NCBI GenBank assembly: GCA_011915565.1
Contig: GCA_011915565.1_3920.1
Reading direction: 5' to 3' (one strand)
Length of the DNA stretch: 64,000 nt
Source: a phage
Position numbers and translations under genes: made by a program. Numbering within the stretch: the stretch's first letter is position 1; every line of letters begins with the position of its first letter. The notes under the pieces were generated by a model. The model did no database searches, had not been told where the DNA came from, and saw nothing but the letters and a program-made list of their open reading frames with translations. Of this stretch, positions 6,262 through 56,759 are shown piece by piece.

Positions 6262-6307
6262 TTTCTTTACAGGGGCTTTGTAGCCCCTTTTAAGAGGAAA
6301 ATTTATA

Positions 6308-38413: not shown

Positions 38414-38445
38414 AAGGGGACTGTAAAGGTTCCCTTTTTATTTTG
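38414..38445 (+). terminator. intrinsic terminator
   Basis: aagggga-loop-tccc then tttttatttt. Confidence 0.5.
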
Positions 38446-38453
38446 GAGGTAAA

Positions 38454-38969
38454 ATGTATCTGTCAAACCTGAAACGTTCGGTTGCAATGTCAGTTCTAAG
38501 ACTCAGCTTTGATGAGCGTCAAGAGTTTATAGACTCCCACAAATATGACCCTTCAAATTCTAATCACATGGTTCTTTGGAATCGTGATAACTTCCGTGAA
38601 AGAGCACTTGTCCGTTATTACCCACACTACACAATAGATAACCTGTATGAATGGTGTGTTGTGAAGAACACCATTGCAACACTGAACAATCTTTGCAGGT
38701 ATACGGGTAAGCAAACATTTACATTAGGTCATCACAAACCTGTTACAAAAGGTGGTGAACATCACTGTGCAAACTGGTTTATCCAAACTAAAGCTGATAA
38801 CCAGAAGCAAGGAGATAGCCTCCTAAGTATTCCTAAGATGACCTATGAAGAGCAAGAGAGGTATATCAAAAATAATATGCCAGATGTGCTTGACAACAAC
38901 TATACAGATTTGGCAATATCTCTCCTGTTGAAGTTCGAGACAGTTTATAGGGCAACTTATAATGGCTAA
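38454..38969 (+). mobile_element. putative HNH endonuclease
   Basis: LGHHKPVTKGGEHHCANWFIQTKADNQ resembles an HNH core; free-standing between nrdG and the NAD genes. Confidence 0.4.
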
Positions 38970-39240
38970 AGAAAAGTGGGAGATTTTACCATTAGTCAGT
39001 GAAGGAGGTAATGGTTGTGAAATGTACATGATACGTGGTCATGTTCCAGAGCCAATTGCACTTGAGATGGTAAACAACTTTACAGATGGTTCTTACAAAG
39101 ACTTAGGCGAACCAACTGTCAAGCAACAATGGGTTAAACCTGTACCAGACAGCACAGGTAACTGTAGTGTACTTTATCACGTTGTAGACCCTGCAAAATG
39201 CAAATCTGCAATGGCAGTAACAAACGTAACTTTTGATTGA
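38962..39240 (+). CDS. hypothetical protein
   Basis: 92 aa ORF. Confidence 0.4.
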   Translation: MAKEKWEILPLVSEGGNGCEMYMIRGHVPEPIALEMVNNFTDGSYKDLGEPTVKQQWVKPVPDSTGNCSVLYHVVDPAKCKSAMAVTNVTFD

Positions 39241-40133
39241 GAGAGAAAACTATGAAAACATCTATCCGTGTTACAGTTCATTCACCAACTAAAGGGACTC
39301 ATGAAGAAGAGTTTAACATCGTCCAATTCCCTTCTGGTGAGATTGGTGGACACTTTTCGCCAGAGTTTGTTGATTTTACTGCTTATGCAGCATCATCCAT
39401 CAACAATGTGATTATGATTGTAAAAGGTTATGACAAGGACACATTGTTTGCTGTGGCACTTGCTAAAGAAGCAATTGATGATTTAATTCCTCATGATTAT
39501 GCTTTAAAGACTGTCATCTTTTACTACTTACCAAATGCACGATATGACCGTCACATGTTTAAAGGTGACGCAGCAGCTTTAAAGGTTTTTGCTAAACAGA
39601 TTAATGCAATGGGATTTGGCGCAGTCTGTGCAGTTGACCCTCACAGCTATGTACCAGATAACCTGTTTAACTGCTTCCAGAGTATTCCTCAAAAGGAAAT
39701 TGCAGTCCACTATGCAAATGACCCACTGATTGATTACTTAGTAGCCCCAGATGCAGGTGCTGCTAAGAAGATTGCAGAGACTGCTAAAGAGGTGGATAAA
39801 CCATACATCACAATGTCTAAAGTACGCAACCTTAAGACTGGTGAAATTACTGGTATGCGAATCCTTGATGATGTTGATTTGACAGATAAAACCGTCATGA
39901 TTCTGGATGATATCTGTGATGGTGGTCGAACCTTCATAGAAGCAGCTAAACATCTTCGTGAAGCAGGTGCAAAACGTGTGGAACTCTATGTAACACACGG
40001 TATCTTCTCTAAAGATGTTGAAAACCTTCTTGACAATGGCATTGACCACATCTACACTACAAACTCTTTAGGGGAAGCTAAAGACCGTGGCTTAACACAT
40101 TATGGTCAAGTTACTGTAGCAAACCTTGATTGA
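39237..40133 (+). CDS. prs: ribose-phosphate pyrophosphokinase-like enzyme (Prs family; candidate ADP-ribose pyrophosphokinase)
   Basis: PRPP-binding loop VMILDDICDGGRTF; phosphoribosyltransferase-type fold. Confidence 0.8.
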   Translation: MREKTMKTSIRVTVHSPTKGTHEEEFNIVQFPSGEIGGHFSPEFVDFTAYAASSINNVIMIVKGYDKDTLFAVALAKEAIDDLIPHDYALKTVIFYYLPNARYDRHMFKGDAAALKVFAKQINAMGFGAVCAVDPHSYVPDNLFNCFQSIPQKEIAVHYANDPLIDYLVAPDAGAAKKIAETAKEVDKPYITMSKVRNLKTGEITGMRILDDVDLTDKTVMILDDICDGGRTFIEAAKHLREAGAKRVELYVTHGIFSKDVENLLDNGIDHIYTTNSLGEAKDRGLTHYGQVTVANLD

Positions 40134-40142
40134 AACTTTATA

Positions 40143-40166
40143 GGGGCTTAAAAGCCCCATTTTGAG
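40143..40166 (+). promoter_or_regulatory. intergenic stem-loop between the prs-like and nadV-like genes
   Basis: ggggcttaaaagcccc perfect hairpin followed by atttt. Confidence 0.5.
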
Positions 40167-40178
40167 AGAGATTAAAAG

Positions 40179-41960
40179 ATGACTAAATCACTTTATGCAG
40201 TACCAGCAGGTTTAAACGCAGATGCTTACAAATCTGGTCATGTTTACCAGTACCCTAGTGCAACAGAGTACTTGATGTTCAACCTGACACCACGTAGTGA
40301 CAAATGGTTTAACAGCCCCTTAGCAATTGATGGTGTAGTAGCTTTTGGTATTCAACGTTTCGTTAAAGATTACTTGATAGACCACTGGAACGCCACTTTC
40401 TTTGAACGTGATAAAAAAGAAGCCATTGATGAAATCTTAGAAGTTATGAATGGTGTTCTGGGTAAAGATGCTATCGGTCGAGAGCATTGGGAAGCACTTC
40501 ACGACTTAGGTTATCTACCAGTTGAAGTATACGCTGTAGAAGAAGGTACAGTTGTTCCTATGCGTGTACCAATGATTGTCTTCCAGAACACTGTTTCAGG
40601 TTTCCATTGGGTAGCGGGATATCTGGAAGATGCTTTCTCTGCTGAGATTTGGAAGGCTTGTACCATTGCAACTATTGCATTGCATTATAAACGCATCTGT
40701 AAGAAGTGGGCTGACCTTACTTGCGACAATGACTTACATTTACCTTATCAGTGCCATGACTTTGCTATGCGTGGTATGTCCGGCTTTACTGATGACGCAT
40801 TTAACGCTGTAGGCCACTTAACCAGCTTTAAAGGGACTGATAGCTTCCCTGCTGTATATACAGCTAAACGCATCTACGGACAGTCTTACCCAGTCTCTGA
40901 TATTGGTGGTTCTGTACCAGCCACTGAACACTCTGTAATGTGTGCAAACATTGCTTGGGAAGGTGGTAATGAGTTGGTTGAAGAAGAAAGACGCTTTAAA
41001 GGTGAGTTGCAAACCTTCCGTCGCTTCTTAACAGAAACTTATCCAACTGGTATTGCAAGTGTTGTTTCAGACACTTATAACTTCTGGAGAACTGTGTCAG
41101 AAATCTTACCAGCACTCCGTAAAGAAATTATGGAACGTGATGGCAAACTGGTAATTCGTCCTGACTCTGGAGACCCTGTACACATTGTCACAGGTTATAA
41201 AGCAATCCACTTAGAGTGTGCTAAAAAGGCTTATTATGAGCACCTAAGCAATCTGGAAGCCAGTGACACAATGCTGAATGCTGTTCTGAACATGAAGCTT
41301 GAAAACATCAGCTATGGTATTGCTGGATGGCTACTGTCAGAAGGCTACGAAATGGTTGTTGACAGAGAAGACTTTGAAGTTGCTGATACAGTGATGTTGA
41401 AGAACGCTTATATGGTTGGTTCTGCAAACGTTGTAACACGCCCTGTAGCAGAGATTGATGGAGCTATTAAGACCTTGTATAACATCTTTGGAGGAACTAT
41501 TAACTCTAAAGGTTTTAAGGTACTGGATGAGCACATTGGCCTTATCTATGGCGACTCTATCACGTTGGAACGTGCAAACGAAATCCTGAAGCGTCTGTAT
41601 GAAATGGGGTTTGCAAGCTCTAACGTGGTGTTTGGTGTAGGCTCTTACACTTACCAGTACATGACTCGTGACACCTTTGCATTTGCTGTCAAAGCAACTC
41701 TTGCAAGCATTGGTGGCAAAGAGATTATGCTTGCAAAAGACCCTAAAACAGATAGTGGTGTTAAGAAATCTGCCTTTGGTGGTGTAGCACCTATGTGGGA
41801 TGGTGAGAATTTGAAAGCTGTAGATGGCTATGGATTCCAGAGCTTTGCAGATGCACTTGAACATCCAGCTTGTGCTTTACGTTTAGTCTTTAGCGACTCT
41901 GAGCAGTACGGTTACACAACTCTTGGTGATATTCGAAATAATATTGACAATCAGCTTTAA
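40179..41960 (+). CDS. nadV: nicotinamide phosphoribosyltransferase-like enzyme (NAMPT/NadV family)
   Basis: 593 aa; size, composition and position next to a Prs-like gene fit NAMPT/NadV. Confidence 0.8.
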   Translation: MTKSLYAVPAGLNADAYKSGHVYQYPSATEYLMFNLTPRSDKWFNSPLAIDGVVAFGIQRFVKDYLIDHWNATFFERDKKEAIDEILEVMNGVLGKDAIGREHWEALHDLGYLPVEVYAVEEGTVVPMRVPMIVFQNTVSGFHWVAGYLEDAFSAEIWKACTIATIALHYKRICKKWADLTCDNDLHLPYQCHDFAMRGMSGFTDDAFNAVGHLTSFKGTDSFPAVYTAKRIYGQSYPVSDIGGSVPATEHSVMCANIAWEGGNELVEEERRFKGELQTFRRFLTETYPTGIASVVSDTYNFWRTVSEILPALRKEIMERDGKLVIRPDSGDPVHIVTGYKAIHLECAKKAYYEHLSNLEASDTMLNAVLNMKLENISYGIAGWLLSEGYEMVVDREDFEVADTVMLKNAYMVGSANVVTRPVAEIDGAIKTLYNIFGGTINSKGFKVLDEHIGLIYGDSITLERANEILKRLYEMGFASSNVVFGVGSYTYQYMTRDTFAFAVKATLASIGGKEIMLAKDPKTDSGVKKSAFGGVAPMWDGENLKAVDGYGFQSFADALEHPACALRLVFSDSEQYGYTTLGDIRNNIDNQL

Positions 41961-41972
41961 AAGTATATGATA

Positions 41973-41998
41973 AGAGGCTCCTACGGGAGCCTTTTTAA
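41973..41998 (+). terminator. intrinsic terminator
   Basis: gaggctcc-tacg-ggagcct then ttttt. Confidence 0.65.
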
Positions 41999-42013: not shown

Positions 42014-42349
42014 ATGAAAATCAAAGAGATGAACATCAACATTGTCTTAGAAGAACGTTGGGAGAATATTAAGAAACCTGAAGATGGTAAAAAGTTCCTT
42101 AACAAAATTTTAGTAGCAGCTAAAGAAGAACTGACTGGCAAGATTGCAGCAGCAGTCACAATAAAAGTTTGTGTAAAAGGTCTTCCAGACAACCACCAAT
42201 TTGCGCTTGACGAGTTTAAAAAAAGCTTCTACAATCCAAACAAACAGATGCTTGAAAGTAACTTTGCAGTATCTACAAGTATCGTCCATGACAGAAGCTT
42301 TATCCTTTACAAAAATATGAGAGGTGAGTCATGCAAGCATATTGGATAG
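42014..42349 (+). CDS. hypothetical protein
   Basis: 111 aa ORF after the terminator. Confidence 0.4.
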   Translation: MKIKEMNINIVLEERWENIKKPEDGKKFLNKILVAAKEELTGKIAAAVTIKVCVKGLPDNHQFALDEFKKSFYNPNKQMLESNFAVSTSIVHDRSFILYKNMRGESCKHIG

Positions 42350-44907: not shown

Positions 44908-44937
44908 TTGACAAGGGGCTTTGAAGCCCCTTAGAAT
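44908..44937 (+). promoter_or_regulatory. candidate promoter with hairpin in spacer
   Basis: TTGACA-N18-TAGAAT; spacer is the hairpin aggggctttgaagcccct. Confidence 0.35.
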
Positions 44938-49740: not shown

Positions 49741-50526
49741 ATGGGTATTGTAAAAATAATTAATGGTGATATCTTTGCCGCATTTGATAAAGGTAAGTTT
49801 GACATCATCGGTCACGGTTGCAACTGTATGAACTTAATGGGTGCAGGTATCGCTGACAAGATTTCTAAACTTTACCCAAAAGCGTATGAGACCGATACAG
49901 AAGTTTATCTGTATGCAGGTGGTATAGGTCACAAACCCTGTGAAAATTTACTAGGTAATTTCTCTGTAGCACGTTTAAAACAAGGTCGTATAGCTAATCT
50001 TTACACTCAGCTTAAGACTGGTAAAGATGCCCGATACAGTGCTTTAGAGTCATCTTTGAAACAGCTTAACAGATACTGTGAAGTTAATCAGTTGAAGAAA
50101 GTTGGGTTACCTATGATTGGTGCAGGTATCGGTGGACTTGACCCTCAAGCCGTTACCGTTATCATTAATCAGGTGATGAAGAGTGTAGATGTGTATCTGT
50201 ATGTCTACGAAGGAGAGATGTACCACAAGTTACGCTCAGGTTGGAATAACTACTGCGAACCAGAATACTTTGCAGGTGTAGTAACGTTCACAGACAATGC
50301 AGTTACCCTCTTCAGACGAAGAAAAGGTAAGATACATCAAAGTAACCCTCCGGTTGAAAAGATGTCTCTAAGTAACGCTCTAGTTACCCACCTGTCGAAG
50401 AGCAATCACAGAATTGCAGTAACATTTGGCAGTGATGCAGACACATATATCTATGCAAGGACTGATGAAGATATCGAGGAGATTTTCTCATCACAAGAAG
50501 TTACCTTCTTAGACGCAAAGAACTAA
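49741..50526 (+). CDS. macro-like domain protein (candidate ADP-ribose binding/hydrolase)
   Basis: NGDIF...DIIGHGCNCMNLMGAGIADKI and LPMIGAGIGGLDPQAV resemble macrodomain motifs (GDIT...IVNAAN..L.GGGGV and FPAISTGVYG). Confidence 0.5.
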   Translation: MGIVKIINGDIFAAFDKGKFDIIGHGCNCMNLMGAGIADKISKLYPKAYETDTEVYLYAGGIGHKPCENLLGNFSVARLKQGRIANLYTQLKTGKDARYSALESSLKQLNRYCEVNQLKKVGLPMIGAGIGGLDPQAVTVIINQVMKSVDVYLYVYEGEMYHKLRSGWNNYCEPEYFAGVVTFTDNAVTLFRRRKGKIHQSNPPVEKMSLSNALVTHLSKSNHRIAVTFGSDADTYIYARTDEDIEEIFSSQEVTFLDAKN

Positions 50527-56686: not shown

Positions 56687-56759
56687 TCGACGCAGCGGGG
56701 CTATTTAGCCCCAGATACCTGAAAAGCTCCTTCTCATAGGGGCTTTTTTACGTCTATAA

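Follow-up and report, generated by a model that had tools for sequence, protein, structure and literature searches.

The 64,000-nucleotide stretch of phage DNA analysed here (GenBank assembly GCA_011915565.1, contig GCA_011915565.1_3920.1; hereafter "the window") carries on its + strand, according to the list of open reading frames (ORFs) within 39237-41960, a Prs-like ORF followed by a co-directional Nampt-like ORF. The question raised by this locus is whether the two genes make phosphoribosyl pyrophosphate (PRPP) and nicotinamide mononucleotide (NMN), as the family names imply, or rebuild NAD+ from ADP-ribose (ADPR) and nicotinamide. We consider it highly probable (roughly 93%) that the pair encodes NAD+ reconstitution pathway 1 (NARP1), with adps as the first and namat as the second gene. 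An NAD+-regenerating two-gene pathway had been proposed for this DNA in an earlier reading of the letters (the original prediction), and orthology to Bas63, published homologue tables and residue signatures of both proteins support it. We regard the identification as correct; it is not new, because the pair sits in the genus in which NARP1 was discovered.

Judged by its nucleotide sequence, the window is part of a Felixounavirus genome. Over the locus, nucleotide identity is 99.1% with Escherichia phage SP22 and 98.6% with wV8, at least 80% of the locus is covered in 229 phage records, essentially all FelixO1-like (from Escherichia, Salmonella, Shigella and Citrobacter hosts), and the gene order around the pair (NrdD, NrdG, small ORFs, adps-namat, rIIA, rIIB) is the Felixounavirus layout. 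The starting point for the discovery of NARP1 was the gene pair 79-80 in Bas63 (JohannRWettstein, MZ501086), a BASEL phage and itself a Felixounavirus (Osterman et al. 2024, bioRxiv 10.1101/2024.02.11.579819). Bas63_0079 and Bas63_0080 encode 293 and 593 aa, as do the genes of the window, and the synteny is identical. Gap-free alignments with 579 of 593 identical residues for Namat (98%) and 229 of 293 for Adps (78%) indicate that the two genes are syntenic orthologues of those in Bas63. The spacer hairpin, the terminator and the unlinked Macro orthologue discussed below are likewise shared with Bas63, and the difference lies in the N-terminal allele of Adps. The NARP1 homologue tables list Adps of SP22 and wV8 as 'Namat nearby: Yes' and their Namat as 'Adps-associated' (bioRxiv 10.1101/2024.02.11.579819). 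The tabulated Adps sequences of wV8 and SP22 are of the allele type of the window, wV8 differing at two residues among those shown; as these orthologues stand in published tables, the pair is already catalogued as NARP1.

Bas63 without genes 79-80 plates about 20-fold less well on SIR2-HerA and its infection leads to deeper NAD+ loss; the anti-defence effect persists in a host without pncC and nadR, and ADPR-pyrophosphate (ADPR-PP) and its breakdown product ADPR-cyclic-phosphate are found only in the combination of wild-type Bas63 and defence system (bioRxiv 10.1101/2024.02.11.579819). The chemistry was shown with the homologues of SPbetaL1 and ICP1 because the Bas63 protein 'did not purify well'. 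Adps of SPbetaL1 makes ADPR-PP from ADPR plus ATP and gives no product in the Prs-type reaction, for which the legend names ribose-5-phosphate and the running text PRPP; SPbetaL1 Namat forms NAD+ from ADPR-PP and nicotinamide, and NAD+ is the sole product when it is given both substrates (bioRxiv 10.1101/2024.02.11.579819). This Namat prefers ADPR-PP over PRPP, and NMN is formed from PRPP alone in vitro. NARP1 of SPbetaL1 overcomes type I Thoeris, both DSR1 and DSR2, and also SEFIR; it does not overcome type II Thoeris. Structures exist for ICP1 Adps with ADPR/ATP and with ADPR-PP/AMP (PMC13586617) and for SPbetaL1 Namat (9w5w and 9w5x; PMC12774641).

In the mechanism proposed for the window, NAD+-depleting defences with SIR2, TIR or SEFIR effectors would split NAD+ into ADP-ribose and nicotinamide. 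Adps would then pyrophosphorylate the distal ribose of ADP-ribose at the expense of ATP, and Namat would exchange the pyrophosphate of ADPR-PP for nicotinamide, yielding NAD+ directly, so that the phage could go on replicating. By means of NARP1, phages use metabolism, and not inhibition of defence proteins, to answer NAD+-depleting immunity (SIR2-HerA, DSR1/2, type I Thoeris, SEFIR). That the window's own proteins act as Adps and Namat is suggested by orthology and residue conservation.

Family searches give a less specific picture. Pfam assigns PF00156 and PF14572 to the Prs-like ORF and PF04095 and PF18127 to the Nampt-like ORF. The former passes the broad subfamily model TIGR01251 (122.6 bits, cut-off 113), the latter NF006629 (468.9 bits, cut-off 405), and the PHROG matches are 619 (E=4e-97) and 448 (E=8e-203), respectively. 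GenBank relatives name the genes prs and nadV, and even nadR and pncB. The pairing of a Prs-like with a NAMPT/NadV-family gene, and prs and nadV as the older names, are thus borne out. Adps scores below every NCBIfam equivalog cut-off for Prs, the best scores being 104 against 296 and 91 against 297 bits, and the database name Prs arises because only the broad TIGR01251 subfamily passes. The best sequence matches of Adps in the Protein Data Bank (PDB) are ordinary Prs, in a set that holds no ICP1 Adps entries. For the window, the value of the identification lies mostly in correct annotation, as the names in TIGR01251, NF006629 and PHROG say Prs or Nampt, and elsewhere even nicotinate phosphoribosyltransferase, nadR or pncB. 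Recognition of Adps and Namat matters when the host range of Felixounaviruses for therapy and biocontrol is to be predicted.

The catalytic and specificity residues of Adps were defined with the ICP1 structures (PMC13586617). In an alignment of Adps from the window, Bas63, FelixO1 and ICP1 (GenBank gene) with E. coli Prs, R87, H121, D161, K185, D212, D213 and D216 of ICP1 correspond to R97, H131, D167, K190, D219, D220 and D223 of the window, all of them conserved. Lys190 is also equivalent to K162 of SPbetaL1 and K194 of PRPS1, and Prs shows the same K-x-R pattern. The loop quoted in the original prediction occupies residues 215-228 of Adps; its core DDICDG is common to window and ICP1, whereas E. 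coli Prs has DDMIDT, and F228 corresponds to ICP1 F221. As in ICP1, the C-terminal alpha11-alpha12 helices, which in PRPS form the filament/allosteric module, are missing. Folds and much of the catalytic machinery are shared with cellular Prs and Nampt/NadV, but Adps is only 25% identical to E. coli Prs and has lost its regulatory C-terminus. The active-site alignment proposed as a check of the prediction finds the acceptor-groove and Lys residues of ICP1 Adps in place in a protein that falls short of the Prs equivalog thresholds.

Evidence from Namat points in the same direction. Roles of its core residues and the Namat-specific consensus GS-X-Phi-X-Phi-X-Phi-TRD were derived from the SPbetaL1 structures (PMC12774641). 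The HMMER alignment to 9w5x, whose numbering agrees with the SPbetaL1 numbering of that paper, shows conservation of D15, Y17, F195, R198, D221, H251, R327 and D329, the counterparts of SPbetaL1 D13, Y15, F189, R192, D215, the catalytic His, R306 and D308. The selectivity-clamp helix (SCH) fits the consensus and its motif is conserved in 49/49 aligned homologues. Nampt has no adenine clamp (PMC12774641). According to the published rule for the selectivity-clamp loop (SCL), the third residue is R, K or Y, and in the case of K or Y the following residue stacks; Bas63 is an example of the K/Y type (PMC12774641). The window sequence S-D-K42-W43 fits this rule, in contrast to SPbetaL1, in which Arg40 stacks. 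An AlphaFold2 model of Namat (pLDDT, the predicted local distance difference test score, 93.5; predicted template modelling score 0.91) has the Namat crystal structures 9w5x/9w5w as its best Foldseek match (TM score 0.94-0.95 over the target), and these are also the best PDB sequence match; NadV of H. ducreyi and mammalian NAMPT rank behind them. The two-gene arrangement, the Namat core and the SCH motif are thus shared with SPbetaL1. The ~491-aa SPbetaL1 Namat differs by its identity of about 37-38% and lacks insertions of ~85 and ~15 aa.

Several points weigh against this reading. The enzymology rests on homologues that are 33% (ICP1 Adps) and about 37-38% (SPbetaL1 Namat) identical to the window proteins. 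ICP1 F92 aligns with Met102 of the window (Phe103 is adjacent), and the equivalent of F18 has no confident alignment. The N-terminal allele of Adps is unlike that of Bas63, with about 59% identity across the first 95 codons, and it is this domain that supplies adenine-contacting residues. The ~85-aa subdomain of Namat is absent from the SPbetaL1 crystal structures. Because SPbetaL1 Namat makes NMN from PRPP in vitro, the window protein may, by analogy, possess some classical Nampt activity. Finally, the gene searches cover the 64 kb of the window out of a genome of ~87 kb, and genes elsewhere lie beyond their scope. There are two further differences from ICP1: within the stretch corresponding to C215-S220 the PP loop ends in GRT instead of AAS, and ICP1 F223 aligns with E230. 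For ICP1 the backbone amides of A218-S220 have been stressed (PMC13586617).

Table 1. Features of the NARP1 locus and of the unlinked Macro gene (positions in the window)
Feature	Position	Strand	Remarks
orf171	38454..38969	+	PHROG 3500; weak HNH-like match, PHROG 2214
orf92	38962..39240	+	PHROG 4726; confined to Ounavirinae
adps	39252..40133	+	293 aa, Prs-like, putative ADPR-pyrophosphate synthetase; 78% Bas63_0079, PHROG 619
divergent N-terminal-domain adps allele	39252..39690	+	window/wV8 type versus Bas63/FelixO1 type
MSKVR, catalytic-hairpin Lys190 and Arg192	39813..39827	+	alignment to ICP1 Adps; HMMER alignment to Prs 4twb
PP loop VMILDDICDGGRTF	39894..39935	+	D219, D220, D223 = ICP1 D212, D213, D216
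spacer hairpin GGGGCTTAAAAGCCCC, GGGGCT-TAAA-AGCCCC, then AUUUUG	40143..40158	+	perfect 6-bp stem, 4-nt loop
namat	40179..41960	+	593 aa, Nampt-like, putative nicotinamide ADPR-transferase; 98% Bas63_0080
selectivity-clamp loop (SCL) TPRSDKWFNSPL	40287..40322	+	K42/W43; identical to Bas63
short Namat insertion	40947..40994	+	about 15 aa relative to SPbetaL1 Namat
inserted alpha/beta subdomain in Namat	41196..41462	+	~85 aa (about 77-89), residues ~340-428; block pLDDT 93-97
selectivity-clamp helix (SCH) GSYTYQYMTRD	41640..41672	+	Namat residues 488-498; fits Namat-specific consensus
intrinsic terminator GAGGCTCC-TACG-GGAGCC and U-run	41972..41995	+	canonical; directly after namat
Macro-domain 'phosphatase', Adpp-like	49741..50526	+	261 aa; PF01661, PHROG 335

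The span originally predicted for the pair stands at its end (41960) but not at its start. TTG 39237 is a mechanical start that overlaps the stop codon of the upstream 92-aa ORF. ATG 39252 (MKT...) is conserved, preceded by GAGAGAG and annotated as the start in both Bas63 and FelixO1; it is probably the true start of adps. The two genes are separated by 45 nt, compared to 180 nt in ICP1.

An extension of the pathway, compatible with NARP1, is suggested by the Macro gene and constitutes the chief residual interest of the locus. NARP1 cannot counter aRES, which yields ADPR-1''-phosphate, and in 15% of NARP1 operons a Macro-domain phosphatase named Adpp lies no more than two genes away from the pair, an arrangement called NARP1-AP (bioRxiv 10.64898/2026.01.28.702374). 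The four neighbours in the window (orf171, orf92, orf111 and orf58) show no match to the Macro family even at E<=10 and no hit with the Adpp hidden Markov model (HMM), and the window thus falls outside this ±2-gene definition. The same HMM, built from 10 published Adpp and run against the ORFs of the window, matches the Macro ORF 7.8 kb downstream of the pair with E=3.2e-32. A survey restricted to ±2 genes would miss this gene because of that distance; neither Escherichia nor Felixounavirus appears in the survey table (bioRxiv 10.64898/2026.01.28.702374), and a literature search found no paper that couples 'Felixounavirus' with 'macro domain'. It is possible that the protein turns ADPR-1''-phosphate into ADP-ribose in trans, so that a 'split' NARP1-AP would resist aRES, and that Felixounaviruses in general, Bas63 included, operate in this way; we put forward both only tentatively and consider them less probable than not.

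Besides the HMM match, this proposal draws on PHROG 335, which also holds 5/5 published Adpp tested, on conservation of 15 of the 16 positions that are shared by at least nine of the ten Adpp, and on Poa1p, an ADPR-1''-P phosphatase, as a close fold neighbour. The gene is conserved together with NARP1 throughout enteric Ounavirinae, with the Bas63 orthologue bas63_0095 being 97% identical, and aRES is found in E. coli, Klebsiella and Enterobacter. However, the gene lies outside the operon, and its conserved spacing of ~8-9 kb from NARP1 is ordinary genome synteny. With 2,796 phage records, PHROG 335 is a very large family; among its members are the Tk.4 genes of T4-type phages, whose products resemble the window protein (~35%) as much as true Adpp do (27-36%). 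Phages with T4-type Tk.4 are not known to carry NARP1. The de-ADP-ribosylases DarG and TARG1 are equal or better fold neighbours than Poa1p, and the protein lacks the Trp found in 'GGDW' of Adpp and has an additional C-terminal beta-rich domain of ~100 aa for which the structure search returned no solved fold counterpart. The NARP1-AP of Vibrio phage Gary, arranged as Adps-Adpp-Namat, accordingly shares with the window the coding capacity for Adps, Namat and a PHROG-335 Macro protein, but neither the distance between the genes nor the extra domain. If the proposal is true, the 15% estimate for Adpp among NARP1 phages is too low, since only ±2 positions were counted, and these enteric phages, a large group, are free of the 'Achilles heel' that NARP1 has against aRES. 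Widely used Felixounaviruses would then be predicted to escape aRES, too, provided that the Macro protein feeds NARP1.

A further idea, namely that the hairpin in the spacer acts as a signal dedicated to attenuation or processing and so determines the ratio of Adps to Namat, appears unlikely. The perfect stem noted in the original prediction does exist; it starts 10 nt past the stop codon of adps, and the 61-nt spacer region folds with -14 kcal/mol (z=-3.55), which none of 200 shuffled sequences equalled. A stable stem with a short U-tract between the two genes would suit such a signal, as would the invariance of the stem in Bas63 and Mooglevirus, in which the loop varies. However, a stem of the form GGGGCT-N4-AGCCCC is found at four intergenic sites of the window (6272-6287, 40143-40158, 44915-44930 and 56697-56712; 0.01 expected), each copy about 10-13 nt past the stop codon of a + strand gene, and the genes preceding the other three are unrelated. 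Bas63 keeps the stem at three equivalent sites, with identical stems and different loop bases, and Mooglevirus Sf17 keeps the adps-namat stem. In FelixO1-type genomes, by contrast, a 492-nt HNH homing-endonuclease gene fills the whole adps-namat spacer and leaves no hairpin. This gene is present in FelixO1 (2116-2607 of the retrieved stretch), in VpaE1_ev78 (2394-2885) and in many relatives, so that the window represents the 'empty' allele. In Erwinia phage phiEa21-4 adps and namat overlap by 35 nt and the hairpin is absent. As FelixO1-type and phiEa21-4 loci do without it, the hairpin is dispensable for NARP1. With its stem recurring at four sites and lost in relatives, a role in processing or attenuation specific to the pair, as originally suggested, is not upheld.

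The hairpin was likewise rejected as an intrinsic terminator, as its four U fail the U-tract rule of the scan. A search of hairpin and locus against Rfam returned no family, the sole hit being a chance match below threshold, to the histone 3' stem-loop, that falls on the terminator behind namat. The hairpin's pattern of recurrence indicates a generic intergenic punctuation element of these genomes, which may serve as a leaky terminator or as a stabiliser of RNA 3' ends. The copy between rIIA and rIIB lies between the two hexamers of an 11/12 sigma-70-like promoter match (TTGACA...TAGAAT, 44908-44937).

Classical salvage, in which a true PRPP synthetase and a Nampt/NadV making NMN would boost nucleotide and NAD supply without recycling of ADP-ribose, and host NadR or PncC/NadD would finish NAD+, agrees with the Pfam, NCBIfam, PHROG and GenBank product names, the two cut-offs passed and the NMN formed by SPbetaL1 Namat when ADPR-PP is absent, but is very improbable, being already largely refuted for the Bas63 orthologue by its independence of host pncC or nadR and the accumulation of ADPR-PP in vivo, and opposed by the products of the SPbetaL1 enzymes, the adenine-clamp motif of the window Namat and the Prs equivalog thresholds that Adps misses. 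NARP2 (Nampt and Nmnat, as in Vibrio phage KVP40) also restores NAD+ under NAD+-depleting defence with a Nampt-family enzyme, but was rejected since the window protein has the clamp motif of Namat and is accompanied by Adps, which NARP2 lacks; no NadR-like (NMNAT-containing) ORF was detected in the window by a homology test of limited sensitivity. NARP3, which consists of a PnuC-like transporter and a NadR-like bifunctional enzyme in Bas30 (PMC13464706), equally restores NAD+ under such defence, but comparison of the proteins of Klebsiella phage KP2025 with all six-frame ORFs of the window gave no NadR-like or PnuC-like match at E<0.1.

Within NARP1, the 5' part of adps has a history of its own. 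Over its first ~440 nt the gene shows 57-80% nucleotide identity to Bas63 and FelixO1, many of the differences being synonymous, and its flanks are ~95% identical. Across ~250 Ounavirinae records the N-terminal 98 aa are bimodal (155 at >=80% identity, 91 at 60-80%), and FelixO1 Adps is a recombinant whose N-terminus is of the Bas63 type and whose middle is of the window type. These patterns indicate an allelic replacement and a mosaic Adps. The larger insertion of Namat is detectable in Ounavirinae only, at a site which is a length-variable hotspot of the Namat family. The word 'insertion' is absent from the main text of the structure paper (PMC12774641), which for this reason is apparently silent on it. 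The dimorphism of Adps and the Ounavirinae-only subdomain of Namat may reflect host pressure on the NARP1 enzymes.

The pair sits in a co-directional string of early/metabolic genes, with NrdD/NrdG before it and rIIA/rIIB after it. The nearest terminator-like sites are found at 38414-38436 upstream and directly behind namat downstream, the latter being annotated as a terminator in phage Barry and conserved in Sf17. Between them orf171, orf92, adps and namat follow one another closely and probably form one transcription unit that ends at the downstream site, as far as the layout of the sequence allows us to judge. A 10/12 promoter-like site is located at 40030-40058 within the 3' end of adps. 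An 11/12 sigma-70-like promoter match (TTGACA-16-TATGAT) abuts the terminator after namat (41944-41995), and the next gene starts at 42014; this arrangement suggests a back-to-back terminator/promoter junction.

The genes orf171 and orf92 precede adps-namat throughout Ounavirinae, Erwinia phage phiEa21-4 included. A functional link of either gene to NARP1 was considered and rejected: homologues of orf171 in Stephanstirmvirinae and in a Klebsiella phage adjoin a helicase and not adps-namat, and the position of orf171 and orf92 beside NARP1 is therefore lineage synteny. In KP2025 an orf171 homologue is located about 2-4.5 kb from the NadR-like and PnuC-like genes (NARP3-type content), which is probably a coincidence of early-region synteny.

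Chromosomal proteins of ~496 aa in Klebsiella, Cronobacter, Kosakonia and Erwinia, annotated as 'nicotinate phosphoribosyltransferase', carry the Namat-specific SCH motif in the form GS[FY]TYQYNTRD. Judging by this motif they are probably bacterial Namat/NARP1 proteins, as reported for Paenibacillus. Three database records under other host names, GU169904 (Staphylococcus phage SA1), MG065664 and MG065668 (Campylobacter phages A132 and A126), contain Felixounavirus sequence 90-99% identical to the locus and are likely chimeric or mislabelled assemblies.

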